In this document: positions 3,556 through 32,110 of the stretch, piece by piece
Position numbering within the stretch: position 1 is the first letter of the stretch
Layout: every line of letters starts with the position of its first letter
Virus record (IMG/VR): IMGVR_UViG_3300030102_006903
Coordinates: 49,374-113,373 of that record
Reading direction: 5' to 3' (one strand)
Source of the DNA: a virus
DNA: 64,000 bases
Translations under genes and position numbers: made by a program
The notes under the pieces: generated by a model
The model's input: the letters and a program-made list of their open reading frames with translations, nothing else
Databases searched by the model: none
Told to the model about the DNA's origin: nothing

Positions 3556-4812
3556 TTAGATGGACTTTTTTCCTTCTATTTTAACTGGTGATATATCTTC
3601 AAATTTACCACCATGTAACTCTTCAATTTTTCTTATATGTTTTGTTCTCCAATCAGTCGATACTGTCGATTCATCAAACTTTTCATAGGATTCCATATAA
3701 TCAATCATAGCATCAATTTCATTTTGTGTTTTTTGTGGATATTTCTTTTTACTTTTATTTAAGAAAATCTTTATTTTATCTTTTTCTACTTGAGATATTT
3801 CTGCTAATGAAAATTCTGCTGGAGACCAAGCATAATAAAAATCAATATGTTCTGAGGTTTTTATGTGTTCCTTTTTTAACATATATTCAATAAAATCAAA
3901 TATATGATAAACATTCATTATTGTTGTTGTATATTGAAACCCATACATTATACCCTGTCCAATCTCAAATGGGGTTTTTGGTTCAGCATATTTTTTTATT
4001 ATTTCTAAATTACTTTCAAATCTCTTAGTATTAAAACCAGTCCTTTGATATTCACCAACCTTTCCAATACCATCACATGAAATCGATAAGTAAACTCTTT
4101 CAAATCCCCTCCATAAATCGATTAAACTTTGTTCATCATATTTTATTACTGATAAGTTTGTATTATAATGTATTGATAATTTTCTAAGTTCTTTCGTTTC
4201 ACCTTTCCAAAACATGGTATGAATTTTCATATTTTCATGCAGATGTTTTAAAACTTTGAAATGTTCTGGCATTATAAGAGGTTCACCACCAGCAAAATAA
4301 AAACTTTTAATGTTACTTAAATGAGGGATTAAATCTTCAACAATCGTTTCACTTGCTCTAATTACTTTAGTTTTTTTATCTAAGTTATTAAATGGATGTA
4401 ATTTTTTATAATCCTCATACCAGTTTGAAGAAAAATCATGATTACACATTCTACATTTAAAATTACATAAATTAGAAAATCTTATATCGATATGTTGAAA
4501 ATCTGATGGTACTGAAAAATCATCTGCAACTTCTGGTTGTACCCATAAAGAGTTTTTATTGAAATCTATTCTTGGTGAGTGGCCTGTACTATCTTCTCGT
4601 TTGTAACAAATATCACAAGCCTTATTTCTTTTCCCCTCCAACATATCCTTTCTAAGGTTTTTCATTTGTGGAGAATTGAATGCGTTTTCAATACTCATCT
4701 TTTGCAGATTAAGTGCTTCATCAAAACCTCCTGCGATACAACAAGGTTTTACTTCACCATCCGCTTGTGAATACAAATGTAGAAAGGGTAATTTACAATA
4801 TGTGGAACTCAT
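3556..4812 (-). CDS. radical SAM protein with N-terminal twitch/SPASM-like domain
   Basis: CNFKCRMC, FAGGEP, YNTN; N-terminal C..PF.H...G.V.PCC...C..CY. Confidence 0.9.
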   Translation of the reverse strand: MSSTYCKLPFLHLYSQADGEVKPCCIAGGFDEALNLQKMSIENAFNSPQMKNLRKDMLEGKRNKACDICYKREDSTGHSPRIDFNKNSLWVQPEVADDFSVPSDFQHIDIRFSNLCNFKCRMCNHDFSSNWYEDYKKLHPFNNLDKKTKVIRASETIVEDLIPHLSNIKSFYFAGGEPLIMPEHFKVLKHLHENMKIHTMFWKGETKELRKLSIHYNTNLSVIKYDEQSLIDLWRGFERVYLSISCDGIGKVGEYQRTGFNTKRFESNLEIIKKYAEPKTPFEIGQGIMYGFQYTTTIMNVYHIFDFIEYMLKKEHIKTSEHIDFYYAWSPAEFSLAEISQVEKDKIKIFLNKSKKKYPQKTQNEIDAMIDYMESYEKFDESTVSTDWRTKHIRKIEELHGGKFEDISPVKIEGKKSI

Positions 4813-7311: not shown

Positions 7312-7839
7312 TAATTTTAATATTTTTTTTACTGATTTTGGTCCTACTTTTATTGTATGATATGGAAATCCATTATCATCTAAAACTTGTTTACACAATT
7401 TATCAATTGCTACTGCTTGTTCGTAATCTTGAAATCTTTCTTTATTATTGTGAACAGTATCACCTCTTTCTAAAAGGATATTAATATTATCATATTGATT
7501 GTGTAAATCAATTACCAAATTGTGAAAAGGTTCTCTGTAAAAACTTGCAGGATAACCTTTTGTGTAATATCTGTGATAAATAGTAGAGAAAAGGATTGGT
7601 GAATCGATGATTATATAATCAACTTTACCATAACATTCTGCAATTCCTCTATGTTGATTTGCAAAAACATATAACTGGTCTGATATTGCTGGTATGTTTT
7701 TATCCCATGCTAATCTTTTTGGAAATTCGTATGGGTTATTACAACTTATATGTTGTTTTTTTAATTTATAAGTAACCCCATTTGCAATTGAGGATTTACC
7801 TATACCTGCTCCACCGAATAAATTAATCAGTTTGCTCAT
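7300..7839 (-). CDS. P-loop nucleotide kinase-like protein (AAA_28/NadR-type)
   Basis: INLFGGAGIGKS Walker A and IIIDSP. Confidence 0.8.
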   Translation of the reverse strand: MSKLINLFGGAGIGKSSIANGVTYKLKKQHISCNNPYEFPKRLAWDKNIPAISDQLYVFANQHRGIAECYGKVDYIIIDSPILFSTIYHRYYTKGYPASFYREPFHNLVIDLHNQYDNINILLERGDTVHNNKERFQDYEQAVAIDKLCKQVLDDNGFPYHTIKVGPKSVKKILKLLGY

Positions 7840-8554
7840 ACTCTCTCCAATATCCTAAATCTTTTTTAAACCATTTTATATTTTTGTAATTGAAATAATT
7901 GAATAAATTTATTTTTAAAAAATTTAAATATCCAAATTTCAAAAATCTTCTATTATCTTGTCCAATATATTCATTGAGTATTTTGAACCTTGATTTTGGT
8001 ACCTCTTTCGATAACCAAAAATCTTCTGAATTTTGTAAAGTTTCATCGAACCCACCGAGTTCATTAAATTTCTTTTTAGAAATTAAAAAGAAACAACCTG
8101 TACAAAATGTGATTGGCATTATATTTCTCATCCAATCTAATATCTTATAAGTCCAAATAGATTTTTTATCATGAGTAGTTAATGATTTTTGTTTTACTGA
8201 AATGATATCGTATCTATTTAAATTTTTATGTGCTTCATTTAAAACATTTCTACCTATAAGAACAGAATCAGCATCCATGAATAAAATGTAATCTGTTGAT
8301 ACAAATGTAGCACCATTATTTCTTGCAAAACCTACTTTACCACCTTGAACCACCTCTATTTGTAGATTAGAGAAATCCTCAGAGGCTTTTGATATATACT
8401 CAAGTGTTTTATCAGTAGAGTTATTATCTGCAATTACAACTCGTAATACACCTTGGAAGTTTTGTCTTGATATTTTCCAAAGAGTATTGTAGATGTAGTT
8501 TTCCTCGTTATAACAAGGAATTATTATTGTTAATAAATCAGTTATTGTTTTCAT
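7823..8554 (-). CDS. GT2-family glycosyltransferase
   Basis: IIIPCYNEE, ADNNSTD, ARNNG, FMDAD, GGFDE...ED. Start set at MKTITD (8554). Confidence 0.9.
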   Translation of the reverse strand: MKTITDLLTIIIPCYNEENYIYNTLWKISRQNFQGVLRVVIADNNSTDKTLEYISKASEDFSNLQIEVVQGGKVGFARNNGATFVSTDYILFMDADSVLIGRNVLNEAHKNLNRYDIISVKQKSLTTHDKKSIWTYKILDWMRNIMPITFCTGCFFLISKKKFNELGGFDETLQNSEDFWLSKEVPKSRFKILNEYIGQDNRRFLKFGYLNFLKINLFNYFNYKNIKWFKKDLGYWREYEQTD

Positions 8555-8556
8555 GT

Positions 8557-8586
8557 GAAAAGAAAGTGGGGGAGTTTCCTCCCCCA
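8557..8586 (-). terminator. intrinsic terminator after the TonB-dependent receptor gene
   Basis: TGGGGGAG-GAAA-CTCCCCCA followed by CTTTCTTTTC on the minus strand. Confidence 0.8.
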
Positions 8587-8605
8587 ATATTTCTTTAGGT
8601 TGTTT

Positions 8606-11314
8606 TTAGAATCTGTATTTGAATGAAGCATTCCATGTACGTCCGAATCCGAACCATACTGAATTTCTTGTATCAATACCATTCCATGTTTCTGAAGCTG
8701 CTCCAGCATGGATGTTTGAGTTAGATTCTGCAATGTAGTAAGTATCAAGTAAGTTGTTGATATTTACTCTGAATGAAGCATCATTTCCGAATAAGTTGAA
8801 TCTAAAGGTTGAACCTAAATCAACTAATCCATAAGATGGTAACTTCAATGCACCCGCATTGTCAGGTGCTGTAAATTCTGAATCAGTAATTGAGTAATCT
8901 GCGTAAAGATTATCTACAAATCTATATCCTAAATCTACATTTAACTTGTTTCCAAGTTTATAATCTGCTTCTAAGTAAGAAACGAATTGAGCTGCATCAC
9001 CAACTTTAGCATCTTTTAAGTACAATGTACCTGTTCCGATTTGTTGGTTTTCATCATCAAATAACGCTGCTTCAAAATCTTTAGTATATCTCCAATCACC
9101 GATTGATAACATACCTTTTAATCTTAGTTTAGAATTATAATCATAAGTTGCCTCAACTTCTATACCGTTGTGAACTACATCGATATCCTTGAATTGTGCG
9201 AATCCATCAACACCTTGTTGGTTTGATAAACTTCTTGTAACAAATCTGTTACCCCATACTGTTGAGTATGCGTTTACATTTGCTCTGAAGTTATTTCCAA
9301 TGAATCCATATCCTAATTCAACCGATTTAATTTCCTCATTTTGTAAATCAGGATTAACAGTATTAGCATAGTTAGGGAATACACCATCAAAGTTTGGTTG
9401 TCTTGAGATGAAACCAGCATTGAAGAATACATTATTCTTTTCATCAATGTTATAGTTTGCACCACCTTTTAGATAACCACCACCAACATTCTTAGTATCA
9501 GATATTGGATTACCTGGTTGTCCAAAGTAATCAATTCTTTGGAAAGATTGATTTGATAAACCAGCTTGTAATACAGCAGATAAAGTAGAGTTGTTATATT
9601 CAACTAAACCATTTAAACCTTGCCAACCAACTTTACCAATATTATAGTAAGCGATTTTAGGGCCTCTGATACCTGTATCTTTGAATGGATTTGCTTCAAC
9701 TAATGTATTAATTATTTGTCCTGCAGAGTTATCATTACCAGTTGAGTAATAACCATCTAATCCCATTAGGTGGTTTAATGCTCTATAATGATATCCTTTG
9801 TAGTTTCTTAAATCAATACCGATTGAAGTTTTCCAATTCCCTTTCTCATATTCTAAGTTAGAGATTGCTCCAACCCAGTCATGAGAGTTCATAGAAGCTC
9901 TTCTAATAAGTGCACTTCTGTTAACACCATCAGCATTGAATCCATTTGAACCAATCAATTGACCTGTAAATGGTAAATCACCACTATATGGGTCTGTGTT
10001 TGCTTGGTTATATGCAACTACTGCATCAAAATCAATAAATCCTTCTGGTGTTCTTGAACCTCTACCATTTTCTAAGTAGTGTTCAGTAAGGTCTTTTCTA
10101 AATGGTAAGATATCAGTTTCCGAGTTGTAATAACTTTTACCTCTTGGACCTGTTCCTCCACCTCTACCAGCTGAACCATATAATGATGTAGCTAATTTAA
10201 GGTTAGAATTAATATCCCAATCCCAATTCAGAGTTGCTAATGGTTTGTTGTAGAAGTTTCTTCTCATTGAGAATTCTTCTCCATTTAAAACACCACCATT
10301 TGTATTCCATCTTCTATCAATTCCTTCTGTACCAAAGTTTTGGTAGTCTCTAATAGAAACCCAAACATCTCTTTGGTGGTGCCATTGACCAGCACCTAAG
10401 AAAGAAAAGTTAACTGAGTGCTTAGAATCTTCAGGTGCATATCCTAATGCAAAGAAGTAAGTATAACCCTCACCACTTGTATTATAGATATATCCATCAC
10501 CTTGCCATCTACTTAATAAGAAAGATGAAGCCCAACCATTGTCATTAAGACCTGTTGAGTGAGAAACAGTAGTTTTGAAATACCCATCATTACCAAATGT
10601 TTGAGCAATTGAACTACCACTTCTTGCTTCAGCTGCCTTAGTAAAGATTGATACAGTTCCACCTACTGATGGTACTGCTAATCTTGAAGCACCTAAACCT
10701 CTCTGTAATTGGATTCCACTTGCAACATCAGTAAGACCTTGCCAGTTAGACCAATAAACCCATCCATTTTCCATATCGTTAACTGGTTGCCCATTGATAA
10801 GGAAAGATGTATTTCTTTGGTCGAATCCTCTTAAAGAGATTCTCGAATCACCATATCCACCACCTTGTTTGGTTGCGTAGACACCTGGTGTTCTGTTCAT
10901 TATCTCAGGAAACTCTTGGTTACCTACTTTGAGTGCGATTTCTGATGGTGAAATAGTTGAAACTGCTACAGGTGTTTCTCTCACCTTTGCAATATCAATT
11001 ACACCAGAACTTACAACAACCTCACCAAGTACATTCAAGTCAGGTGTTAAACCTACTTTCGTGTTACCACTTGATTCAATTACTGTGGTTTCGTACCCTA
11101 AGTAAGAAACAACAAGTGTTGTTCCCTCAGATACATCAAGAATAAATGTCCCATCAAAACCTGATATTGTACCATCTTGAGTTCCCTCAATGATGATAGT
11201 AGCACCTGGTAAAGGGTCATTTGTCTCGACATCATAAACTAATCCACTTATTTGGGAAAAGCTTGCTGTTATACTTCCAAATAGGAATAACAGACTTAAC
11301 ATTAAATTTCTCAT
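8606..11314 (-). CDS. TonB-dependent outer-membrane receptor (Bacteroidota type)
   Basis: Signal peptide followed by Gln; CarboxypepD_reg-like N-terminal extension (PLPGATI...FDGTF...SYLGY); plug (PGVY...ISLRG...LINGQP); barrel ending NINNLLD...GRTWNASFKYRF. Confidence 0.93.
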   Translation of the reverse strand: MRNLMLSLLFLFGSITASFSQISGLVYDVETNDPLPGATIIIEGTQDGTISGFDGTFILDVSEGTTLVVSYLGYETTVIESSGNTKVGLTPDLNVLGEVVVSSGVIDIAKVRETPVAVSTISPSEIALKVGNQEFPEIMNRTPGVYATKQGGGYGDSRISLRGFDQRNTSFLINGQPVNDMENGWVYWSNWQGLTDVASGIQLQRGLGASRLAVPSVGGTVSIFTKAAEARSGSSIAQTFGNDGYFKTTVSHSTGLNDNGWASSFLLSRWQGDGYIYNTSGEGYTYFFALGYAPEDSKHSVNFSFLGAGQWHHQRDVWVSIRDYQNFGTEGIDRRWNTNGGVLNGEEFSMRRNFYNKPLATLNWDWDINSNLKLATSLYGSAGRGGGTGPRGKSYYNSETDILPFRKDLTEHYLENGRGSRTPEGFIDFDAVVAYNQANTDPYSGDLPFTGQLIGSNGFNADGVNRSALIRRASMNSHDWVGAISNLEYEKGNWKTSIGIDLRNYKGYHYRALNHLMGLDGYYSTGNDNSAGQIINTLVEANPFKDTGIRGPKIAYYNIGKVGWQGLNGLVEYNNSTLSAVLQAGLSNQSFQRIDYFGQPGNPISDTKNVGGGYLKGGANYNIDEKNNVFFNAGFISRQPNFDGVFPNYANTVNPDLQNEEIKSVELGYGFIGNNFRANVNAYSTVWGNRFVTRSLSNQQGVDGFAQFKDIDVVHNGIEVEATYDYNSKLRLKGMLSIGDWRYTKDFEAALFDDENQQIGTGTLYLKDAKVGDAAQFVSYLEADYKLGNKLNVDLGYRFVDNLYADYSITDSEFTAPDNAGALKLPSYGLVDLGSTFRFNLFGNDASFRVNINNLLDTYYIAESNSNIHAGAASETWNGIDTRNSVWFGFGRTWNASFKYRF

Positions 11315-11401
11315 AAATTAAATTAATTTAAATTAATAATACTATAACTGATTATAGTAACGCTTGAGATACTTGCATACCTCAATATCTTCAATATTTT
11401 T

Positions 11402-11524
11402 CTAATTGGGTTTTTCATTAAAATCTTGGGAATAAAAAGTAATCCTATCAGCAGTGACTGATGGTTCTTCGAAATACGGACTTTTGAAATAACTTGCAAA
11501 ATTTATAATATAAGTTTCACTCAT
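11402..11524 (-). CDS. small ORF (40 aa) upstream of the TonB receptor; the frame continues 19 codons past its TAG
   Basis: MSETYIINFASYFKSPYFEEPSVTADRITFYSQDFNEKPN*, with a late-like motif TACTTATA just upstream. Confidence 0.35.
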   Translation of the reverse strand: MSETYIINFASYFKSPYFEEPSVTADRITFYSQDFNEKPN

Positions 11525-11538
11525 CTTTGTATAAGTAT

Positions 11539-21498: not shown

Positions 21499-23280
21499 TT
21501 AACCATCACACGCAACACAATCTGGGTCTACTGCTCTAGTTGCAATATCTCCTCTAAGAACTGATTCAGTTCTCATATAATATAGAGTTTTAATTCCTTG
21601 TTTCCAAGCCTCTAATGTAACTTGATTTATCCACTTCGGTGTTGCAATCGAAGGGAAAGCTAAATTTAATGAAACTCCTTGGTCAATATACTGTTGTCTA
21701 ACACCAGCCTGTTTTACCAAGTCCATTTGATTAATTTCTTTGAATGTTCTAAAAACATCTTTTACAGGATAAACTTTTTCTCTTTCTCCATTAGTAATTT
21801 CTTCACAAAGTACCATTTTACCTTCTAAGTAACACCACTTATCAAGTTCTTTGATATCTTGTACTGAACCACCATCTTCCAAAATTTTATCCCAAGTTTC
21901 TTTATTATTAACACCTGCTTTTCTTAATACCTTTACTAACTCACCATTTTTTCTGATGAATGTACCTTTTGAAGTTTGTTCAGTAAATACATTCGCTGCC
22001 CATGGTTCGATACCAGCAGATACATTTCCAGCTAATTTAGAATTACTTACTGTTGGAGCAACTGCTCTTAAGTGAGTATTTCTAAATCCACTTTCTCTAC
22101 ACCATAGAGGTTCACCCATTTCAGATGCCATATCTCTTGATGCTCTTTCTGATTCTATCTTTAACTGAGAAAAAATCTTACGAGTTTCAAATTGTGCCTC
22201 CATACCTTCAAATGGAATACCATTTTGTTGTAGGTAAGTGTGCCATCCTAAAACTCCTAATCCTAATGCTCTACCTTTTTCAGCAGATGCAACAGAGTTT
22301 TCAAATCCTCTCATGTTTTTTGCTTTTTGAATAAACTCTGAAAGAACACCATCTAAAAACCAAGTTGCTGTATAAACTAAATCAGTATCTCTCCACTCAT
22401 TGTATTTAGCAAGATTTACTGATGATAAACAACAAACAAAGGAATGGTTTTCATCTGTGTGTAAAGTAATTTCAGAACATATGTTTGTCATATGTACTTT
22501 CAATCCATTTTTTTTGTACATCTCAGGATTAGATTTATTAATATTTCCTTTGTACATGATGTATGGTTCACCAGTTGCTTTTCTTTTTTGTAGTAATTTT
22601 CCCCACCTTCTTCGTGCATCAGGTTCTCCTTGTTCAAGTTTTCTCATAAACTTATCACCTACAACTGCACATTGGTGTAGATTAAGTGATTGTCTATTTA
22701 CATCTCCTTTAGGTTCTCTGATTTCTAACCAATCTTCAAAATCTTCATGTTCGATATTAAGGTTAACAGATGCTGCTCCTCTTCTTACTGAACCTTGGTT
22801 TGTAGCAAGGATTGTAGAATCATATATTTTACAGAATGGTACAACACCATCAGATGTTCCATTACCTGTAATGGTAGCACCAGCAGGTCTTATTTGGTTT
22901 ACACCAATACCAACTCCACCACCATGTTTAGCAAGTAACATTAGTTCTAAGTTTTTAGAACCAATATCGTATATTGAATCGGCAACATCAATACCAAAAC
23001 AAGATATAGGTAATCCTCTATCAGTGCCAGTATTTGAAAGAACTGGTGTTGCTAAGTTTAACCAACCTTTCCATATATAATCAAAAAACTTAGTTGCCAG
23101 TTGAGGTTTGTTTAATCTTTGAGCAACTCTTGTTGCAACTCTCCAATAAGCATCTTTTGGTTTTTCACCTGGTAATAGGTATCCTTTAGATATTGTTTTT
23201 ACATAAATTTCTGTATTTCCCCAAGAAGGAAAATCAACATCGATTTCCCAACCTAATTCTTCGCCGTAGTTTTTTGCCAT
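21499..23280 (-). CDS. nrdA: ribonucleotide reductase class I alpha subunit (short form, no ATP cone)
   Basis: ATPVLSN, PISCF, TNICSEI, VCCLSS, APTVS, KTLYY, and C-terminal CVAC. Confidence 0.95.
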   Translation of the reverse strand: MAKNYGEELGWEIDVDFPSWGNTEIYVKTISKGYLLPGEKPKDAYWRVATRVAQRLNKPQLATKFFDYIWKGWLNLATPVLSNTGTDRGLPISCFGIDVADSIYDIGSKNLELMLLAKHGGGVGIGVNQIRPAGATITGNGTSDGVVPFCKIYDSTILATNQGSVRRGAASVNLNIEHEDFEDWLEIREPKGDVNRQSLNLHQCAVVGDKFMRKLEQGEPDARRRWGKLLQKRKATGEPYIMYKGNINKSNPEMYKKNGLKVHMTNICSEITLHTDENHSFVCCLSSVNLAKYNEWRDTDLVYTATWFLDGVLSEFIQKAKNMRGFENSVASAEKGRALGLGVLGWHTYLQQNGIPFEGMEAQFETRKIFSQLKIESERASRDMASEMGEPLWCRESGFRNTHLRAVAPTVSNSKLAGNVSAGIEPWAANVFTEQTSKGTFIRKNGELVKVLRKAGVNNKETWDKILEDGGSVQDIKELDKWCYLEGKMVLCEEITNGEREKVYPVKDVFRTFKEINQMDLVKQAGVRQQYIDQGVSLNLAFPSIATPKWINQVTLEAWKQGIKTLYYMRTESVLRGDIATRAVDPDCVACDG

Positions 23281-24398
23281 TATATTAAATTTTTTACTAA
23301 ATCGTTATTTTTTACAAGTATCAATATTTGATATTTTTCATTTTTTGTAACACTTTTATAAGTTACATGCTGGTATGGTTTATAAATTAAACATTCACCA
23401 ACTTTTGGTTTTATTAATGAAAATGTATTTCTATCGTTTTTATACCATTCATCATAAACCTCAACCTCACCACCTTCATAATCATCATTCAAAGTTATAT
23501 CATAGGTAGTAACATATTGTTTTTTATCATCAAAAGGCATATCTTTGATTGTTTCTACATGTCTATCGTATTTATTGCCTTCTTCATATTTTACAAAAAC
23601 ACAATCTACCTTATTCATATCAATTGGTTTAAATTTTGAAAATAAAGTATTATTGATAATTTTTTCAAATTCTTTATTATACTTTAGTTTTCTTCTAAAC
23701 CACTTTCTTTTATGTAGTATTCCTTCAACTTCTTTTTCTACATCCTCAAAAGACAAATTATCTTTGTTTTCTGAAATTAATTTACTACATAATTCTGTTG
23801 TTAAAATATTTTTAGAATCGTAAAACTTATCTTTTCTAAATTCCCCACCTACAAAATATGTCCAGCATATTGTATGGTAAGGTTTTAACAATAGTTCGTA
23901 ACCTTCTTGTTGTAGACCCATTGCTTTTGAATTTAGTAAATCTAAACTTTTAAGTTCAGCATATTCATAAATCGATAAACAACAATTTTCATTTGAGATT
24001 AATTTTGCATAATCTTCAAACTTTGAATAATTTTTATCCTCATAGGTATCCATAAAGATACCATCAAATTTTTTACTAAGAGTTGGAATTACATCTATCC
24101 AATCTCCGAAGATAATTTCTACATTATCTTTATCTTTTGCCCACTCAATTGCTGTATCATAAATTTGTTTATTGATTTCGATACAAGTGTAACTCTTAAC
24201 ACCCATAGAGTAAAATCTATTAGCAGAGTAACCTAAACCAAAACCAATATCTAAAATATGACCACCACCTTTTCCAACTACATTACAAAACTCTTCTGTA
24301 AGTGGTTTTGCTATTTTATCCATAACGATACCTTTATTTTTGATACCATCAGAATAAAATATTCTATCCTTTGTTATCGTAACCTTTTTATTTTTCAA
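23280..24398 (-). CDS. fusion of a class I SAM methyltransferase (GAMT/Rmt2-like) and a 2OG-Fe(II) oxygenase-like domain
   Basis: ILDIGFGLG, IEIN, GDW, FDGIFMDTY; then Y..G..Y.RHVE...LNDDYEGGE. TTG start. Confidence 0.75.
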   Translation of the reverse strand: MKNKKVTITKDRIFYSDGIKNKGIVMDKIAKPLTEEFCNVVGKGGGHILDIGFGLGYSANRFYSMGVKSYTCIEINKQIYDTAIEWAKDKDNVEIIFGDWIDVIPTLSKKFDGIFMDTYEDKNYSKFEDYAKLISNENCCLSIYEYAELKSLDLLNSKAMGLQQEGYELLLKPYHTICWTYFVGGEFRKDKFYDSKNILTTELCSKLISENKDNLSFEDVEKEVEGILHKRKWFRRKLKYNKEFEKIINNTLFSKFKPIDMNKVDCVFVKYEEGNKYDRHVETIKDMPFDDKKQYVTTYDITLNDDYEGGEVEVYDEWYKNDRNTFSLIKPKVGECLIYKPYQHVTYKSVTKNEKYQILILVKNNDLVKNLI

Positions 24399-24401
24399 AT
24401 T

Positions 24402-25397
24402 TTAAAATAAATCGTCCCAATCCTCACCTTCATTTGCTTTAGAATAATCGGTTGGTCTAATAGCGAAGAAATCGGTGTGAGTGTGTCCACCAGTTAAATG
24501 ATAGAACCATTCTAAGTTTTCTGCCTTCTTTTTATCGAATTCAAAAATTGGTTCGTATCCTAATTCTTTTAATTTTGTGTTTGTTCTATCTTTGATAAAT
24601 TCTTTTAAATCTTCTTTTTTAAGATTTTCTAAATCACCTAGTTCAAACATTTTATCAATAAATTTAGATTCTAATTCTACAATAAGTTTTGCAGCCTTTT
24701 GAATTGATTCTTTACATTCATCTAATAACTCAGGATATTCATCACACATATGTCTGAATAATTGACAACCCATTCTTGAATGTAGAGATTCATCTCTTAC
24801 ACTCCACTTCATTTGTTGTCCAATACCTTTTAGTAAGTTTCTCATTTGAAATGAGTAAAGTACCGCAAAAGAAGAATATAAACTAACTCCCTCTGCGAAT
24901 GCTGAAAAGATTGCTAAACTTCTACCAACCTCTTGTCTTGCTTTTGGATTTGTTGCCAAATCTTCATGTTTCCATTCAGCGGTAGTTGAGGTTAGGAGTT
25001 CAAACTTCTCTGCTACTGCAGGTTCATGCAAGAATGCCGAGAAGTCCTCTAATCCTAATGTTTCATTTAGATACGAATAAGCTGTAGCGTGAATTGTTTC
25101 TTGTGAACCAAACATCATTGCCATTTGTCTGATTTCATGTTTTGGAAACCAATCAGTAACCATGTTAGTCCAATAATCAGAAACTGCACATTCGGTTTGA
25201 GCAAATCCAAGTAGAATGTTCCCAACCAAATTCTTTTCTTCAGGTGTTAACTTTTCGTTCCAATCTTTAACATCCATTTGCATGGGTATTTCTGTGTGTA
25301 ACCAAAATGCTTGTGCCTGTTTTAACCAACCTTCTGTATAATAGATTGGATATTCGAATGGTTTAAATGGGATTCTTTCTTGGAATAATTTGCTCAT
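24402..25397 (-). CDS. nrdB: ribonucleotide reductase class Ia beta subunit
   Basis: ETIHATAY, EGVSLYSSF and DESLH diiron motifs. Confidence 0.95.
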   Translation of the reverse strand: MSKLFQERIPFKPFEYPIYYTEGWLKQAQAFWLHTEIPMQMDVKDWNEKLTPEEKNLVGNILLGFAQTECAVSDYWTNMVTDWFPKHEIRQMAMMFGSQETIHATAYSYLNETLGLEDFSAFLHEPAVAEKFELLTSTTAEWKHEDLATNPKARQEVGRSLAIFSAFAEGVSLYSSFAVLYSFQMRNLLKGIGQQMKWSVRDESLHSRMGCQLFRHMCDEYPELLDECKESIQKAAKLIVELESKFIDKMFELGDLENLKKEDLKEFIKDRTNTKLKELGYEPIFEFDKKKAENLEWFYHLTGGHTHTDFFAIRPTDYSKANEGEDWDDLF

Positions 25398-25413
25398 GAT
25401 ATAACCTATGTTT

Positions 25414-25584
25414 TTATTTGTTTTCTTCTACTGATGCTTTTCTGTAATCTGTTACTAATTTTTTGATTTCACCAATTGCTTTTCTAGCTCTTGATTTAGC
25501 TGCTTTTGATGAACCATTGTGTTCTGTTTCGAATTGAGTATATAACTCTTTAATTTGTTCGAAGATTTCGTTTGAATTTGCCAT
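25414..25584 (-). CDS. histone H1-like Hc1 family protein
   Basis: KAAKSRARKAIGEIKKLVTDYRKASV. Start set at MANSNE, which has AAGGA upstream. Confidence 0.8.
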   Translation of the reverse strand: MANSNEIFEQIKELYTQFETEHNGSSKAAKSRARKAIGEIKKLVTDYRKASVEENK

Positions 25585-25743
25585 AAAATATTCCTTTTTT
25601 AAATTTATTTTTGAAGTGACCAACATACTGGTCGTGTTTATAATTATTGTATATATTGAAAAACGAAAAGAATTTCATATTATTTTTTATTTTACCATAC
25701 AATAAAGGTTTTCTATCTATCTCTGTTAAAATTTTTTGATATA

Positions 25744-27102
25744 CTAACCCATATTTTCTACATACTTTTTGTGTAAAAGTTTTTTTGTTTCTAATTGTCC
25801 ACTTGCAGCTTGTTTTTGAGCAATAACACCATCTGGTGAGTTCTGTTCAAAAACTTCAATGTAACCTGTATTTGTGTTCATTTTACATGGGAATGTAATT
25901 CCATCAGGTCCAAATCTGTTTTTCATAATATGTGCTCGAGCAGTATCATTTAGTTTATCTTTTGATTTTCTACTCCAACTCATAATGAAATCTGCATTCA
26001 TTACTTTTGCATATGAATCAGCAATTTTATCTGCTTCGATAACTTCTGAATCAATGGCTGAACGATTGGTTTGAGATGCAGTCCATATTGGAATTTCCAA
26101 TTCACCACTCATACCACGAAGGTCGATGTAAACCCCTCCTTGTTCCGCATAAGTAGAGTCTGTCTTATTGGAATGGGAGAGTAAAAGGTCTGCATAATCT
26201 ACAATAATAACATCGGGCTTGTTATCTGTTGCAATCATCTTCTCTATGTGTTGTTGTAACTTTTTGACTGTAACACCTTTTGGTGGAAAATACTTAATAA
26301 GTAGTTTTCCTTTTAACCCTTCTATTTTACTTCTTACTTCTTCTTTTCTGTCTTTTATATCAACAGAAGGTATTTGTGTAAATACAGTATCATATCTTGC
26401 ACCTACATAGTGTTCAGATAATTCTAATGTATAGTGAACTACACTCAAACCTTGTCGAACAGCCGAAGCTCCTATTGCGGTAAGTATCCATGTCTTACCA
26501 ACACCAGATGGGGCAACAACAACTCCAAGTTCACCAGGTCCTAAACCACCATCCATCAAATCATTGATTGGTTGCCAGTTGGTTGGTACAACATTTCTTT
26601 TGAGTTCTGTAACCCTATCTTCAAAACTTTCTATATAATCAGTTCCTAAATCTGTATCATTACCGATTTTAGTTGCTTTATCAACTAAATCTTTAATTCT
26701 ATCATAATTTCCTGCTTTTAATAAATCTACTGATTGTAGAATTACTCCTTTTAGGTTTTGGTTTATACAAAAGTTTGTAAATTCGTTTTTAATGTAATCT
26801 AAATCAACATTACCGATTTGAGTAAAAACATGACGGAGTTGTTCCACCACAGTTTTCTTAAGTATCTCATTATCTAACTTTGCTAATTGTCCTTTGAATA
26901 CATCAAGGGTTGGAGGTTTTTTGTAATCTTCGTGATATCCAAGTATTTCAGATACAATCCATTTATTTGCATCGTTCTCGAAAAACTTAGAAGTTGTTAC
27001 TTCAGATATTGTATCTAAAAACTTACCATCTGTAAGTAATGCGGATACAACCTTAGATTGAAAAGATTGTCCATATTTTGATAAAGTATCTATATCCTGC
27101 AT
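25744..27102 (-). CDS. replicative DnaB-like helicase (T4 gp41-like)
   Basis: APSGVGKT, TLELS, IVDYAD, TASQTNR, KNRFG. Confidence 0.95.
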   Translation of the reverse strand: MQDIDTLSKYGQSFQSKVVSALLTDGKFLDTISEVTTSKFFENDANKWIVSEILGYHEDYKKPPTLDVFKGQLAKLDNEILKKTVVEQLRHVFTQIGNVDLDYIKNEFTNFCINQNLKGVILQSVDLLKAGNYDRIKDLVDKATKIGNDTDLGTDYIESFEDRVTELKRNVVPTNWQPINDLMDGGLGPGELGVVVAPSGVGKTWILTAIGASAVRQGLSVVHYTLELSEHYVGARYDTVFTQIPSVDIKDRKEEVRSKIEGLKGKLLIKYFPPKGVTVKKLQQHIEKMIATDNKPDVIIVDYADLLLSHSNKTDSTYAEQGGVYIDLRGMSGELEIPIWTASQTNRSAIDSEVIEADKIADSYAKVMNADFIMSWSRKSKDKLNDTARAHIMKNRFGPDGITFPCKMNTNTGYIEVFEQNSPDGVIAQKQAASGQLETKKLLHKKYVENMG

Positions 27103-27124
27103 TTATTGACTCTAATTGTAACTA

Positions 27125-27156
27125 CAAATATACGAAAAATATTTTTAAAATCCAAA
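27125..27156 (-). promoter_or_regulatory. Bacteroidota-type -33/-7 promoter
   Basis: TTTG-N20-TATATTTG upstream of the helicase. Confidence 0.8.
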
Positions 27157-28212
27157 TTATTTTGTAATAATATTTCCAAAAGTAATTTTTAACCAATCAT
27201 TAATATCACCAAAGTTATTAACAACTTTATATTTTAATAAAATTTTTAAGAAATCAATTTTATTAAGTGGTTTTATTTTTTCATTAAATCTATCTAAAAC
27301 TTTCATTTTTATCTGACCCGATATATCAACATCTTTCAATTGCATTAATTTTTCATTTAGATATATTTGTTTCTTGGCTTTTAAAATATCATTGTATATT
27401 TTTATTTTTCCTTTTGTTTCTTCTATCTTTTGTTCAGTTAATTCAAACAAATCATCAACTGTAACTAATTTTTCTTCTGTTATCTCTGGAAATCTTTTGA
27501 TTAAAGTTTTGATACCACAACCATAAACTCCAGGTATATTATCAGATTTATCACCATCAAGAACTCGATATACTAAAATATTTTTAGCATCAATTCCATA
27601 TTCTTCAAAAACTGATTTTCTATTATAAATTTTCTTTTTGGTTGGTGACCAGACGATAGTATTTTCATCAACTAATTGTAGGAAATCCTTATCAGTTGAC
27701 ATTACTACCGCCTGTTCTTTATCTTTAAGAATGTGTGTAGTGATATACGCCATAACATCATCAGCCTCAACACCATCGTAAATCATAGTTGTGATTGGTA
27801 ATCCATCTAACATTTCATTTAACCAAACGAACTGTCTTTTCATAGATTCTCTCTCATCTTCATCATTCATTAAATCTGAATATGCACGATTTACTCTGAG
27901 TTTATTCTTATCTCTGTTAGCTTTATAACCACTAAACTGTTTTTTTCTTTTTATAGAGCCACCCTTACCATCAAATACTACAACAACACGAGTCGGTTGT
28001 ACTTGTCTAATTGCGTAACCTATTGATTTTAGAGCACCAGTAACACCACCAACATGGTCACCATCATCATTCATTGTAGGAATGGATGACCAACATCTGA
28101 TGAATGTATTTAGACCATCGATAATTAAAACTCTATCGTTTTGTTTTCTATCGATATTTTGGTCATGGTCTCTTTCAACCGAATCTAATATGTTTTTGTA
28201 GAGTTGTTTCAT
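27157..28212 (-). CDS. 5'-3' exonuclease / flap endonuclease (T4 RNase H, PolI N-terminal type)
   Basis: IIDGLN, VVFDG, YKANR, EADD, STDKD, GDKSDNIPGV.GCG.KT. Confidence 0.93.
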   Translation of the reverse strand: MKQLYKNILDSVERDHDQNIDRKQNDRVLIIDGLNTFIRCWSSIPTMNDDGDHVGGVTGALKSIGYAIRQVQPTRVVVVFDGKGGSIKRKKQFSGYKANRDKNKLRVNRAYSDLMNDEDERESMKRQFVWLNEMLDGLPITTMIYDGVEADDVMAYITTHILKDKEQAVVMSTDKDFLQLVDENTIVWSPTKKKIYNRKSVFEEYGIDAKNILVYRVLDGDKSDNIPGVYGCGIKTLIKRFPEITEEKLVTVDDLFELTEQKIEETKGKIKIYNDILKAKKQIYLNEKLMQLKDVDISGQIKMKVLDRFNEKIKPLNKIDFLKILLKYKVVNNFGDINDWLKITFGNIITK

Positions 28213-28442
28213 TATAATACTTCTTTTGTTGAGAAATACTTCTCTAAAGTTTCTAATCTTTCATCTGCAGATGCTAATAATTTCAAAGCAGCAGTTGCGT
28301 TATCCCAAAAATCTTTAGTAGAATGGTCTCCTATTCCACTTGGAAAGTTTTTAAGTAAATCTAACGATAATAATGCTTTGTTCTTATCAGCCTCAGCTTC
28401 TGACTTTAACATATCATAAAGTCTTTTATCTATTTTTGCCAT
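28212..28442 (-). CDS. hypothetical protein
   Basis: 76 aa; GIGDHS motif; coupled to its neighbours. Confidence 0.7.
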   Translation of the reverse strand: MAKIDKRLYDMLKSEAEADKNKALLSLDLLKNFPSGIGDHSTKDFWDNATAALKLLASADERLETLEKYFSTKEVL

Positions 28443-28451
28443 AATTTAAAT

Positions 28452-29576
28452 TTATTCTGTGCTACCTTCAGTATCAAGTTCCATTGAGTCAATATCAAGT
28501 GTATCTGATTTATATTGTAAGATTGATTCTTCACAAATCTTTTTGTAAATTTGTTCTCTTACATCATCTCTATCTTCCATCAAACCAATAAATTCTTTTG
28601 ATTGGAATTTAATCTCTTCACCTGTATCAGTATCAACATAAGTGTACCAGGCACCAGCTTGTTTTACTAATTTATTTTCTTTCATCACCTTTAACCAAGA
28701 ACCATAGTTATCGATTCCTCTATCAAAATAGATTTCAAAATCTGCTGCTCTTAGTGGTGGTCCCATTCGGTTTTTAACAACCTGACAACGAACTTTCATA
28801 CCAACAACTTTATCGTTGCCGTTTACCTTTTGTTTGATTTGTCCCATTCCCTTCAATCTCAATCTTACAGAGGCATGGAAAGCAAGAGCTTTTCCACCAC
28901 TTGTAGTCCATGGGTCACCAAACGGCATTGCGTTCATTTTTTGTCTTAATTGGTTGGTAAATACCAAAGTAATTTTCTGTCTACCAATCATATTGGTAAT
29001 CTTTCTCATCGCCTTTGATATAATAATTGCTTTATCAGTAGCATATCCATCTTTGTTGTAATCAGATGCCAACTCGTTTTTAGTTGAAGCAGCTGCAACT
29101 GAATCTACTACGATAGTAACCAATTTATCTCTATCAGTAGTTCTTACCTTTTCGATGATAGTTTCTGTGAAATCAAAGATTTGTTCAACTGAATCTGCTG
29201 ATACATAAAGAAGTTTAGAGACGTCAACACCGATTGCCTCTAAAAATTCTCTACTTACTGCAGTTTCTGTATCAATCAATACAGCAACTCCACCCAATTT
29301 TTGCGTTTCAGCTAAAAGGTGTGCAGATACTAATGATTTTCCACTTTGTTCTAAACCAGTAATTTCTGTGATTCTACCAACTGGTAAACCACCATAAGGA
29401 CGATTAGAAACAGCAACATCCAACATAGCACAACCTGTCGATACCCACCCTTCTACATTGGTAGGTGCTTCATCTGAATCAAGGAAGTATGCTACTTTTT
29501 GGTCTTTGGAATATTTGTTAAGTTCACCCGCAAGAACATCTGCTAGGTCTAGCTCTTTTGCTTTCTTTTTCGCCAT
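28452..29576 (-). CDS. recA: RecA/UvsX recombinase
   Basis: GGLPVGRITEITGLEQSGKS, VVDSVAA, NQLR, TSGGKALAFHASVRL. Confidence 0.95.
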   Translation of the reverse strand: MAKKKAKELDLADVLAGELNKYSKDQKVAYFLDSDEAPTNVEGWVSTGCAMLDVAVSNRPYGGLPVGRITEITGLEQSGKSLVSAHLLAETQKLGGVAVLIDTETAVSREFLEAIGVDVSKLLYVSADSVEQIFDFTETIIEKVRTTDRDKLVTIVVDSVAAASTKNELASDYNKDGYATDKAIIISKAMRKITNMIGRQKITLVFTNQLRQKMNAMPFGDPWTTSGGKALAFHASVRLRLKGMGQIKQKVNGNDKVVGMKVRCQVVKNRMGPPLRAADFEIYFDRGIDNYGSWLKVMKENKLVKQAGAWYTYVDTDTGEEIKFQSKEFIGLMEDRDDVREQIYKKICEESILQYKSDTLDIDSMELDTEGSTE

Positions 29577-29587
29577 ATAGTTTTGTA

Positions 29588-30406
29588 TTAATTGTTAAAC
29601 AAGTCATCGAATGCAGCTGCAACATCATCAGTTTTCTTTGAATCTGATTTTGTTTCTACTGAACCACCATCATTAGATGTAGTAGTTTTAGTTTCAGTTA
29701 CAGGTTTAGTTGAAAGAGATTCTTGTGAAACTGATTCATCTTTACCTTCTGCAGTTGGATTCAACCATCCTTCTAATACTGATTTTAATTCATCATAAGA
29801 TAATTCAGAATATAAATCTGTAATTTCAGTTTGTGATTCAATAAATGAAGTTGCCTTATCTGTATCCTCACTCAATGGTGTTTCGCTTGGTTTAACTCTA
29901 ATAGTAGTAGTTGGATAAGTGGTACCAGCCTGTTCTGCTGATTTATATTCGATTGTTAAATCTCTACCACTTGTAGGGTCAGTAATATCACCATAATCTG
30001 GGTCTGCAATATAACCAAGAATCTCTTGATATACAGTTTTACCAAATCCCCAAAATCTTACTCCTTCACCTTCTTCACCTCTTACAATAACAGGTACGAA
30101 AGTTCTTAACTTTGGTTCCATAGCTTTTGCAGCTTTCCAATCATCTTTATCACCCATTCTTTTTAGTTTATCCGCAAACTCTACAATAGGGTCTGGTCTA
30201 CCAAATGATTGTGGTGATAAATAAGTTTTGTTGTTAATGTTGTAGTGAAAATAAAGTTCAATGAAAGGATTATCTCTGTTGAACTTATAGGGAACTATTC
30301 TTACAGTATGTTTCCCTGGTGTTGGTTTCCACAAAGCATCTGTTTTTCTTTGTGTGTTTTGTAGTTTGTTCAGTCTACTTCTGATTGCATTAATGTCTAG
30401 TGCCAT
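29588..30406 (-). CDS. single-stranded DNA-binding protein (T4 gp32-like)
   Basis: WKP..G...VRIVP, FWGFGK.VY, GRDL, and an acidic tail ending FDDLFNN. Confidence 0.85.
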   Translation of the reverse strand: MALDINAIRSRLNKLQNTQRKTDALWKPTPGKHTVRIVPYKFNRDNPFIELYFHYNINNKTYLSPQSFGRPDPIVEFADKLKRMGDKDDWKAAKAMEPKLRTFVPVIVRGEEGEGVRFWGFGKTVYQEILGYIADPDYGDITDPTSGRDLTIEYKSAEQAGTTYPTTTIRVKPSETPLSEDTDKATSFIESQTEITDLYSELSYDELKSVLEGWLNPTAEGKDESVSQESLSTKPVTETKTTTSNDGGSVETKSDSKKTDDVAAAFDDLFNN

Positions 30407-30476
30407 AATTACTCCTTTTAAATGTTATTAAATTAAATTTTAAGTTTAAGTTTTGAGTGTCAAACTTACAACACTC
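30407..30476 (-). promoter_or_regulatory. H-type pseudoknot plus AU-rich leader of the gp32-like gene (putative translational autoregulation site)
   Basis: mRNA reads GAGUGU-UG-UAAGUUU-G-ACACUC-AAAACUU-AAACUUA, then an AU tract and AAGGAG RBS. Confidence 0.6.
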
Positions 30477-30540
30477 GGTGTATATATAAATATTAGAAAA
30501 TCCCAAAAACACACCGAAATTTAAGGAATTTATTAACAAT

Positions 30541-30969
30541 TTACTTGGCCCATTTACCACTTGAAACTAATTGTGCAATGATACCATAAACTGATAAATC
30601 TTGGAAGGTATCTTCACATGATTCACCTATATTATCTTGTTTACCTAGTATAACTAATTGTTTTAATCTTTGAATCTTATCATGCATTCTAAACCAAAGA
30701 CCTGTAAGAGATACTTTCTTTTCTTCTTCAGTTTGTAAATTACTACAAACCGAAATATTTTCTGGTCCATAGTTAGATTGTTTTAAACAAAATAATTCAT
30801 ATTGTGTAAACATAATTCTTTTAAACTCTGCTGTCATTTCTGGCCATTGTTTTTCCATTTCCTCAACAACCTTTGGGTTATCATATTTGATAACTTCATC
30901 ATATTGAGGTTTAACAATCTCTGGTTTAAATTTATGATTTTTTGATTTTTTTCTAACAGTTTTCTCCAT
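30541..30969 (-). CDS. nucleotide modification-associated domain 1 (DUF1599/Nmad1-like, all-alpha NTP pyrophosphatase fold)
   Basis: KQSNYG..NI...RMHDKIQRL...ES..DT..DLSVYGII. Confidence 0.8.
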   Translation of the reverse strand: MEKTVRKKSKNHKFKPEIVKPQYDEVIKYDNPKVVEEMEKQWPEMTAEFKRIMFTQYELFCLKQSNYGPENISVCSNLQTEEEKKVSLTGLWFRMHDKIQRLKQLVILGKQDNIGESCEDTFQDLSVYGIIAQLVSSGKWAK

Positions 30970-30988
30970 AATTAAATTTTAATTTATA

Positions 30989-31020
30989 CAAATATACGAA
31001 ATTATTTTTATAATTCCAAA
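30989..31020 (-). promoter_or_regulatory. Bacteroidota-type -33/-7 promoter
   Basis: TTTG-N20-TATATTTG upstream of the Nmad1-like gene. Confidence 0.8.
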
Positions 31021-31041
31021 TAAAAATAAAGTTTTTTTTTC

Positions 31042-31230
31042 TTAAATTGAAAGATGGTTTAATTTTTCTTTCAATCTTTTCATGTGTTTACAAGGTGAAT
31101 ATGGTCTAAATTGTCTAGCCATACACTCACAATCATCAATCTTATAATCAGTAACTCGTACTTGGTAGTATTTAAGATTACCTTTCTTATCTCTACTACC
31201 CATTTCTCTATAATACCAACTATCAGCCAT
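31042..31230 (-). CDS. SWIM-type zinc finger protein
   Basis: CEC...CKH. Confidence 0.75.
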   Translation of the reverse strand: MADSWYYREMGSRDKKGNLKYYQVRVTDYKIDDCECMARQFRPYSPCKHMKRLKEKLNHLSI

Positions 31231-31538
31231 TACAAATAATTAGGACCATAAAAATTCCACTTATCACTACCATCAAAAATATTACCTCTTGAGTGTTTTG
31301 CTGGAGAGTTCCAACTTGCAGGTTTTAATAAATCACCCTTTAAAACAAGTGAACCTTTATTTACACCTTCGAACATAGAAACGAAAGCCCATACTGAAGA
31401 ACCATCAATAATTTTCATGTATTTTTTACCTTTTGATATTGATAGGGGTTCGTATTCTTTATAATCGTAATTGGCATCCCAATACTTTTTTCTTTTTTGG
31501 TTGACTTTTTCTAACCAAATTTCAAATTGTGATTTCAT
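31230..31538 (-). CDS. conserved phage hypothetical protein
   Basis: GKKY.KI...SVWAFV...GDLLKPASWNSPAKHSRGNI. Confidence 0.75.
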   Translation of the reverse strand: MKSQFEIWLEKVNQKRKKYWDANYDYKEYEPLSISKGKKYMKIIDGSSVWAFVSMFEGVNKGSLVLKGDLLKPASWNSPAKHSRGNIFDGSDKWNFYGPNYL

Positions 31539-31565
31539 ACTTTAAGTTTTAATTTATTTACATAG

Positions 31566-31597
31566 TAAATATACGAAAAAAAAATGAGAAATCCAAA
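31566..31597 (-). promoter_or_regulatory. Bacteroidota-type promoter, -7 variant TATATTTA
   Basis: TTTG-N20-TATATTTA. Confidence 0.7.
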
Positions 31598-31608
31598 TAA
31601 AAAGTGAA

Positions 31609-32010
31609 TTATTTTTGATTAAATTCTATTACCTCGAAGATTCTTGTAGAAATTTTCTTTGTGCCTTCTACATTGGTAACGATGATTGAGTTTTTAAATT
31701 TATCCCAATCGATAGAAAATGATTTATCCAATACACCATTGTTTTCTTCTTTTACTAATTCATTAAGAGCATTAATAGTATAAAGAGTGTTACTTTGTTT
31801 TTTACGATGCACTAATATTGTATTATCCAAAGGTTTCTCTGGTTTATATTGTGTATCTATATTATAAGTTACGAAAAGTTCATCCAAATTACCCTTATTT
31901 TGGAGTACATAAATATAGTTGTAAACTATGTGATATGTCTCTCTTATAAGTTGTAGGGTATTTTGAAGTTCCTCTTTGGTTGTAAAGGTACAGAGTAACT
32001 GTGTTTGCAT
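31609..32010 (-). CDS. hypothetical protein
   Basis: 133 aa ORF (QLLCTF...HRKKQSNTLYTINALN) after a late-type motif. Confidence 0.75.
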   Translation of the reverse strand: MQTQLLCTFTTKEELQNTLQLIRETYHIVYNYIYVLQNKGNLDELFVTYNIDTQYKPEKPLDNTILVHRKKQSNTLYTINALNELVKEENNGVLDKSFSIDWDKFKNSIIVTNVEGTKKISTRIFEVIEFNQK

Positions 32011-32110
32011 ATGTTTTCCTATCTATATAATTATTCACTTATAAATATAATTTATATTTTGGAAAACTACGAATAATGTACTTTATAATATACGGCTCGT
32101 AATATCGTTG

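Follow-up and report, generated by a model that had tools for sequence, protein, structure and literature searches.

A complete TonB-dependent transporter gene resident, conserved and widespread in the genomes of marine phages

The phage genome represented by the IMG/VR record IMGVR_UViG_3300030102_006903 encodes, within a stretch of 64,000 nucleotides (nt; positions 49,374 to 113,373 of the record, the whole of which is referred to here as the window), an intact TonB-dependent transporter (TBDT) of the Bacteroidota type. The gene is resident in the phage genome, is under purifying selection, is widespread among phages and has been repeatedly exchanged with their hosts. The reading that we favor, and consider probable, is that of a host-derived transporter kept as a nutrient-uptake auxiliary gene by large marine phages of Flavobacteriales. 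The original prediction, made from the sequence alone, had proposed that such a receptor would either boost nutrient import in the infected cell or block superinfection. Import stands as the best-supported role, while the block is disfavored, as the outer loops of the phage protein are as constrained as those of the cellular proteins.

As to residency, synteny was assessed by tblastn of all the open reading frames (ORFs) of the phage against the related viral loci. Genes flanking the transporter gene are shared by more than 40 independently assembled viral contigs, the clamp loader occurring in 38 loci (with identities of up to 94%) and polB in 19 loci (at approximately 86%), while the two genes upstream of the transporter are found in 22 to 26 related loci, and no bacterial housekeeping genes flank the transporter in the viral loci examined. 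The gene thus has phage genes on both flanks, and the flanks are kept in relatives, an arrangement by which auxiliary genes are recognized. A second line of evidence is the distribution of the GATC tetranucleotide, which does not occur once in the 113,373-bp genome, against 306 expected sites. Genome-wide, ACGT (2), GCGC (1), CGCG (3) and CCGG (5) are also nearly absent, and CTAG is low (65). This purge points to strong restriction avoidance. The transporter gene is likewise free of GATC, while its bacterial orthologs carry 4–13 sites, with the exception of a Polaribacter copy (L082) that carries one; in a bacterium-derived fragment misassembled into the genome, about eight sites would be expected. 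Most of the related phage loci also lack GATC, and across phage loci the transporter is GATC-free wherever its flanks are, and possesses 3–11 sites where the flanks have many. The codon pattern from which long residence had originally been argued, GAC rather than GAT before C (132 versus 0 in the other genes, 4 versus 0 in the transporter gene), is real, and is a by-product of the total avoidance of GATC. Long residence rather than misassembly is nevertheless borne out, by the synteny in many assemblies, by a GATC-free gene in a GATC-free genome and by purifying selection (below). The GATC purge provides a clean internal marker that separates resident phage genes from recent captures. The same counts were considered for the direction of transfer, and in none of the bacterial copies is there a clear depletion compared with the flanking sequence (for L082, one site versus approximately 2.6 expected), so that a recent transfer from phage to bacterium is not shown.

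Purifying selection acts on the phage copies. All of the 19 copies analyzed in the phage clade of the window are intact, and the median pairwise ratio of nonsynonymous to synonymous substitution rates (dN/dS) is 0.165, at a dS of 0.64. Within this clade the plug is the most conserved region (dN/dS of 0.047), followed by the outer loops (0.131), by the strands and turns (0.185) and by the N-terminal domain (0.275), the least constrained region of the transporter. Divergence of the loops relative to that of the strands amounts to 0.89 in phage-phage comparisons, 1.02 in bacterium-bacterium comparisons and 0.96 in phage-bacterium comparisons, and, as these ratios match across the types of pairs, the phage copies are under the same constraint as functional transporters of cells. 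Diversified loops, as would be expected of a surface altered to evade other phages, are not seen in the phage copies.

Complete outer-membrane transporters had been called rare phage cargo in the original prediction, and for this habitat that notion is wrong. In a scan of IMG/VR, 425 stretches encode relatives of the transporter, in several phage lineages, and the gene and its flanks recur across viral assemblies, the best 80 of the 425 loci showing 67–89% identity to the transporter; proteins from public metagenomes are up to 94% identical. Different genomic backbones are represented among the carriers, one encoding a DNA polymerase of another family (phrog_262) and others possessing a ribonucleotide reductase (RNR) beside the gene, and three relatives rated as 100% complete by CheckV (191, 253, and 276 kb) carry it. 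One relative, 73% identical, is named as originating from a Tara <0.22 µm fraction. Isolate phages yielded no relative over the full length, the only matches of that extent (34% identity) being to unannotated gut contigs designated “Bacteriophage sp.” In the ESM Atlas, only generic “TonB-dependent receptor” clusters were matched, the top cluster being mostly viral. In one of the CheckV-complete records (G002, 252,603 bp, the record of locus L029), a second, different plug-bearing ORF of 661 amino acids (aa) is present at 233192–233494, and therefore some of these phages carry two TBDTs. Three contigs assigned to bacterial metagenome-assembled genomes (MAGs) look like phage contigs binned into MAGs. 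In L107 (a Crocinitomicaceae MAG), all four of the flanking proteins compared are 100% identical to those of the IMG/VR locus L079, and its transporter differs little from those of L078 and L079; L095 and L093 have phage flanking genes in common.

Bacterial relatives were sought in one genome per prokaryotic species, and two classes were returned. The near class (“type II”) is represented by genes at 62–75% identity in Bacteroidota of marine origin, among them closed chromosomes (of an uncultured Polaribacter and of an Ekhidna) and long contigs of 30–61% GC, and the distant class (40–47% identity) by genes of cultured Flavobacteriaceae as well as of other Bacteroidota. In Flavobacteriaceae, both classes are located at a single chromosomal site, in the order DUF3108, M23 peptidase, glucose-6-phosphate isomerase (PGI) and TBDT, followed by either RecJ or a small 8xMP-like membrane protein, and in Schleiferiaceae the ortholog is surrounded by RecA and a TPR protein (RecA-TBDT-TPR). 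The bacterial ortholog is a core gene outside polysaccharide utilization loci, and an upstream GH16 is limited to three MAG contigs whose origin is uncertain. At the pgi-adjacent site (loci L082–L092 and L120–L159) the two allele classes are 40–47% identical to each other, and some of the genes are mosaic, with an N-terminal domain that tracks taxonomy joined to a plug and a barrel of the phage-like class (L090 compared with L128, for example). In L090, from a Yeosuana MAG, the N-terminal domain is 78% identical to that of a distant-class Mariniflexile copy and 46% identical to that of the phage, while the plug and the barrel are 67–81% identical to the phage and 38–62% identical to Mariniflexile.

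The original prediction had named phylogeny and the neighbors of the bacterial receptors as a check, and beside the location of the ortholog at a core site, this gave a tree in which phage and bacterial copies interleave. With the distant class as the root, bacterial copies form the deepest branches and the phage copies are found in the crown, among bacterial ones. A single clade for all the phage copies is rejected, at a cost of 343 log-likelihood units (approximately unbiased test, p = 3e-9), and a single clade for the copies on the replication backbone of the window is also rejected, at a cost of 153 units (p = 0.014), both of these constrained groups having been chosen after the tree was seen. 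By these comparisons, the gene has repeatedly been captured by phages or exchanged between phages and hosts.

The ORF in question, its Pfam matches and its AlphaFold2 model agree on the architecture that had been proposed for it, an intact receptor with a signal peptide followed by Gln, an N-terminal extension, a plug, a barrel and a terminal Phe (Table 1). The matches to CarbopepD_reg_2, Plug and the barrel each exceed the curated Pfam cut-off. The protein starts with MRNLMLSLLFLFGSITASFS followed by Q, read by eye as a predicted signal peptide, and the ...F[AS]Q cleavage junction is also recognized in relatives; Gln at the mature N-terminus is common in Bacteroidota. The C-terminus reads ...KYRF, with F902 conserved in at least 90% of the alignment, and the consensus of the TonB box across 59 phage and bacterial sequences is EVVVxSGVID. 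The model, built with 59 homologs as input, has a mean predicted local distance difference test (pLDDT) score of 83.7 and displays an N-terminal sandwich, a plug, 22 strands (counted by running DSSP on the model), short periplasmic turns and long outer loops. Its best Foldseek matches are PqqU, FhuA, Fiu, YncD and FecA (E values of about 1e-44, at 11–15% identity). Thus the hallmarks of the TBDT superfamily, the plug, the 22-strand barrel, the TonB box, the predicted signal peptide and the C-terminal aromatic residue, are all present. A sequence search of the PDB matched essentially the N-terminal region only, with marginal C-terminal matches to FemA.

The SusC/RagA profile (TIGR04056) scores 79.9 bits, versus a cut-off of 368.25, its match being limited to residues 21–177. 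No match to SusD_RagB is present in the contig, and no SusD was seen beside the bacterial orthologs, the neighbors sampled there being housekeeping genes. A SusC/SusD glycan importer is ruled out by this partial, sub-cut-off match and by the lack of a SusD partner. Likewise, a BtuB cobalamin receptor is ruled out by a low profile score (TIGR01779, 36.5 bits versus a cut-off of 599.7) and by the lack of a cobalamin riboswitch: Rfam searches recognized no cobalamin or other riboswitch in the window, in the 224-nt gap upstream of the gene (at a permissive threshold) or at seven bacterial ortholog loci. The link to vitamin B12 in the original prediction, which drew on a radical SAM gene, fails on these two grounds and on a third, as the ORF in question (window 3556..4812, minus strand) matches Radical_SAM and SPASM only, with no B12-binding family listed at E ≤ 1e-4. 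Structure was also considered as a guide to the substrate and was rejected as such, the best folds being only 11–15% identical and having many different substrates. Neither TonB_C nor ExbB was found in the contig or in the three complete relatives, and thus the host machinery would have to power the transporter.

Of the expression signals that had been proposed for the gene, the strong terminator downstream is found, and the “late-like” promoter motif upstream is not supported. The 70 nt past the stop codon of the transporter fold with an energy of −21.1 kcal/mol. Among the related phage loci with enough downstream sequence, a strong hairpin is present at the same place in 79 of 79 (median of −19 kcal/mol, z of about −5), the hairpin sequences themselves varying among phage lineages. 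The motif, TACTTATA, occurs six times in the window, versus 5.8 occurrences expected by chance, and among 11 relatives aligned it is shared upstream of the gene only with L033. Of the two marks of a moron-type cassette, a promoter and a terminator of its own, the gene has the latter directly after it, and the former is presumed in the 224-nt gap. A scan for promoters of the sigma-70 type returned fewer sites than did shuffled sequences, the model being uninformative for Bacteroidota. An inverted repeat, GTCC..TTAGTAAC..GGAC, is present approximately 60–90 nt upstream of the transporter start in L002, L022, L033 and L020 and is absent in the window; it may represent a terminator of the upstream gene or a regulatory hairpin. 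As for transcripts, Logan contigs from four marine metatranscriptome runs (three studies) fall on the ORF, several pieces of 107–271 nt being free of mismatches, in runs picked because they hold this gene and with contigs that give neither strand nor level, and these hint at transcription of the transporter gene. The flanking phage genes are nearly uncovered in these runs, and, as the runs were selected by this gene and the data are contigs, this was not used as evidence of differential expression.

Table 1. Features of the transporter gene and of its surroundings, in window coordinates.
Feature	Position	Strand	Basis or remark
Intrinsic-terminator-like hairpin with T-rich tail, 19 nt past the stop codon	8557..8586 (stem 8586..8567)	(-)	Stem of 8 pairs (6 G-C)
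Entire coding sequence of the transporter (P0001, 902 aa), with the stop codon	8606..11314	(-)	Single open frame, 0 internal stops
Barrel of 22 beta-strands with 11 outer loops, ending in Phe902	8609..10618	(-)	Pfam PF00593 (TonB_dep_Rec_b-barrel), residues 355–855, 30 bits (cut-off 27)
Plug domain, residues 111–232	10619..10984	(-)	Pfam PF07715, residues 111–190, 48.4 bits (cut-off 23.9); plug in model
TonB box, E98-V-V-V-S-S103, in flexible linker	11006..11023	(-)	Consensus; pLDDT <50 at residues 91–105
N-terminal extension, CarboxypepD_reg-like, residues 22–101	11012..11251	(-)	Pfam PF13715 (CarbopepD_reg_2), 56.6 bits; beta-sandwich in model
Signal peptide, residues 1–20, predicted cleavage between ASFS and Q21	11255..11314	(-)	Translation read by eye
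Upstream gap of 224 nt, presumed promoter	11315..11538	(-)	No Rfam family matches

The window makes up the right-hand 64 kb of the record, which has a GC content of 31%, nearly all of its genes on one strand and a completeness of 59% as estimated by CheckV. Structural genes of the contig include those for a tail sheath, a tape measure and a tail fiber, and its replication set is T4-like, with polB, an RFC-like clamp loader, a gp32-like single-stranded DNA-binding protein, a RecA/UvsX-like protein, a DnaB-like helicase, a 5'-3' exonuclease, NrdA and NrdB. The insertion of the transporter among replication genes, as originally described, is confirmed by its neighbors: on the upstream side are a methyltransferase-like protein of 544 aa carrying an SPPY motif, a protein of 239 aa and polB, and on the downstream side a glycosyltransferase (GT2), a protein with AAA_28 and the RFC-like clamp loader. 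An ORF with a TTG start (window 7823–8587, minus strand) overlaps the terminator hairpin, and the start of the GT2 gene is more likely the ATG at 8554. Between nrdA and nrdB, a 372-aa ORF (window 23280–24398, minus strand) combines a methyltransferase domain (residues 48–116) with a 2-oxoglutarate (2OG)-Fe(II) oxygenase domain (residues 268–347). Iron enzymes encoded by the phage include NrdA/NrdB (a di-iron RNR), a 2OG-Fe(II) oxygenase and a radical SAM enzyme. Upstream of the window, at positions 24777–33981 of the genome (L161:1778–10982), a gene block is found in which Pfam confirms PA14 alone, in an 876-aa protein, with no Pfam matches for the other proteins; homologs of this block are located 2–10 kb from the transporter gene in L029, L043 and L057.

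How would such a gene serve a phage? The timing of its expression, the insertion of its product into the membrane, transport and a benefit to the infected cell are what we infer. The gene would be transcribed as its own unit in the replication (early or middle) block, and the product would be exported by the host Sec system, cut by signal peptidase I before Gln21 and inserted into the outer membrane as a barrel by the host beta-barrel assembly machinery (BAM) complex. Host TonB-ExbBD would then power import via the conserved TonB box, and the infected cell would keep or raise import of the substrate of the chromosomal ortholog while host expression declines, feeding phage replication. This uptake reading is consistent with the conservation of the plug, of the loops and of the TonB box, with repeated capture by different phages and with the placement in early-type modules. 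As to the substrate, iron or an iron chelate would be our guess, given the several iron enzymes of the phage and the siderophore type of the nearest solved folds. A number of points weigh on the other side. No promoter could be recognized, and conservation of the upstream region is lacking across the 11 relatives aligned; the RNA contigs come from gene-selected runs, in which carried-over DNA is possible; the neighbors of the bacterial orthologs are housekeeping genes that give no hint of the substrate; making and inserting a barrel of 900 aa costs time and host machinery in a lytic cycle; and the interleaving of phage and host copies, along with two deep allele classes at one site, would also fit a locus for a phage receptor.

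This last point leads to the main rival, which we consider unlikely, of a receptor-related role, with the chromosomal ortholog serving as an adsorption receptor of this phage or of its competitors and the phage copy altering the cell surface, for example through superinfection exclusion, in which insertion sites or TonB would be competed for, or as a decoy. TBDTs are classic phage receptors, and FhuA bound to T5 pb5 and to Llp is among the Foldseek matches; the interleaved alleles and the mosaics found with the two classes at the pgi-adjacent site would also be in line with such a role. However, the outer loops of the phage copies are not diversified, their dN/dS being below that of the strands, and no excess of loop divergence is found between phage and bacterial copies; the plug and the TonB box, both strongly conserved, would be unnecessary for a mere decoy; and a newly made protein presumably could not remove the receptors already in the membrane. 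In a broader scenario, to which we give little credence, large marine phages would shuttle a plug-barrel cassette among distant Bacteroidota, replacing the pgi-adjacent allele and thus leaving mosaics of a native N-terminal domain and a foreign barrel, with the transporter also being their adsorption receptor; if this were true, carriage of the gene would shape who can be infected, beyond feeding the infected cell.

A role in the envelope other than import, as an export channel or as an anchor for secreted or surface proteins of the phage, also seems rather improbable. It is suggested by the upstream block with its PA14-domain protein and by the homologs of this block found near the transporter in three relatives, as well as by the envelope proteins neighboring the bacterial orthologs (the M23 peptidase, DUF3108 and the small membrane protein). 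Yet PA14 is the sole Pfam-confirmed member of the block, the block is separated from the transporter by a helicase in L029 and by more than 24 kb in the present genome, and the plug and the TonB box are hallmarks of import. As for an assembly artifact, or a neutral passenger recently taken from a host, the GC content of the transporter gene could be taken in its favor (0.356, the fifth highest of 106 genes, versus a genome mean of 0.307 with a standard deviation of 0.028), but the synteny across dozens of independent assemblies, with bacterial housekeeping flanks in none of the viral loci, the lack of GATC sites as in the rest of the genome, and the low dN/dS in a set of copies of which none is broken render this explanation highly improbable.

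TBDTs are the main route of uptake of scarce or large nutrients in marine Flavobacteria, and these bacteria process much of the organic matter of algal blooms. Several lineages of large phages carry one specific core transporter, conserve it and have repeatedly re-acquired it, which implies that outer-membrane uptake limits phage production at sea, and, if the uptake reading is true, nutrient uptake by infected cells would be under viral control. The system is also a tractable one in which to ask if a functional outer-membrane barrel can be made by a lytic phage in the course of one infection cycle, and the question of the substrate can be tested in cultured Flavobacteriaceae possessing the syntenic ortholog.

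The closest known counterparts of the phage gene are the type II chromosomal orthologs, such as those of the uncultured Polaribacter (OZ247578.1; L082, 72% identity), of Robiginitalea MAGs (L083, L116), of Ekhidna (L112) and of Schleiferiaceae (L103). They are like the phage copy in occurring in long (approximately 900 aa) and short (approximately 840 aa, without the N-terminal domain) forms, in their full-length identity of 62–75% and in the same pattern of constraint, and unlike it in their housekeeping surroundings and their GATC sites, the phage copy being located in a replication block and having none. One parallel is presented by pstS of the cyanophages, also a host-derived uptake component found in lytic marine phages and exchanged with hosts; however, genes of this type encode periplasmic binding proteins, with known substrates and demonstrated expression, while the protein described here is an outer-membrane barrel in need of host BAM and TonB. 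What the SusC/RagA glycan importers of Bacteroidota (TIGR04056; solved structures such as 5t3r) have in common with the phage protein is the CarboxypepD_reg domain at the N-terminus, together with the TonB box and the beginning of the plug (residues 3–179), but the best folds of the present transporter are transporters of small solutes, and it has no SusD partner. Another example is the marine megaphage Mar_Mega_1 and LR745206, in which a presumed TonB-dependent receptor (labeled “SusC”) has been proposed to be an auxiliary gene for uptake (Michniewski et al., 2021; PMC9723777), in a one-line annotation with no analysis of conservation, selection or phylogeny and no functional test. This too is a phage-borne TonB-dependent receptor of a large marine phage, but that of LR745206 matches only residues 96–292, around the plug, at 34% identity, and thus belongs to a different transporter family. 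A third example comes from phages of ammonia-oxidizing bacteria, for which a preprint lists six TBDTs under “morons and auxiliary metabolic genes,” with iron/heme import and a receptor role both suggested (bioRxiv 10.64898/2026.05.02.722434); as described there, these are siderophore and heme receptor families, distinct from the present one. Searches of the literature found no paper on this transporter family in flavophages. Phage-borne TonB-dependent receptors are, therefore, already known, and what is added here is evidence on the residency, selection, distribution and host exchange of one of them.

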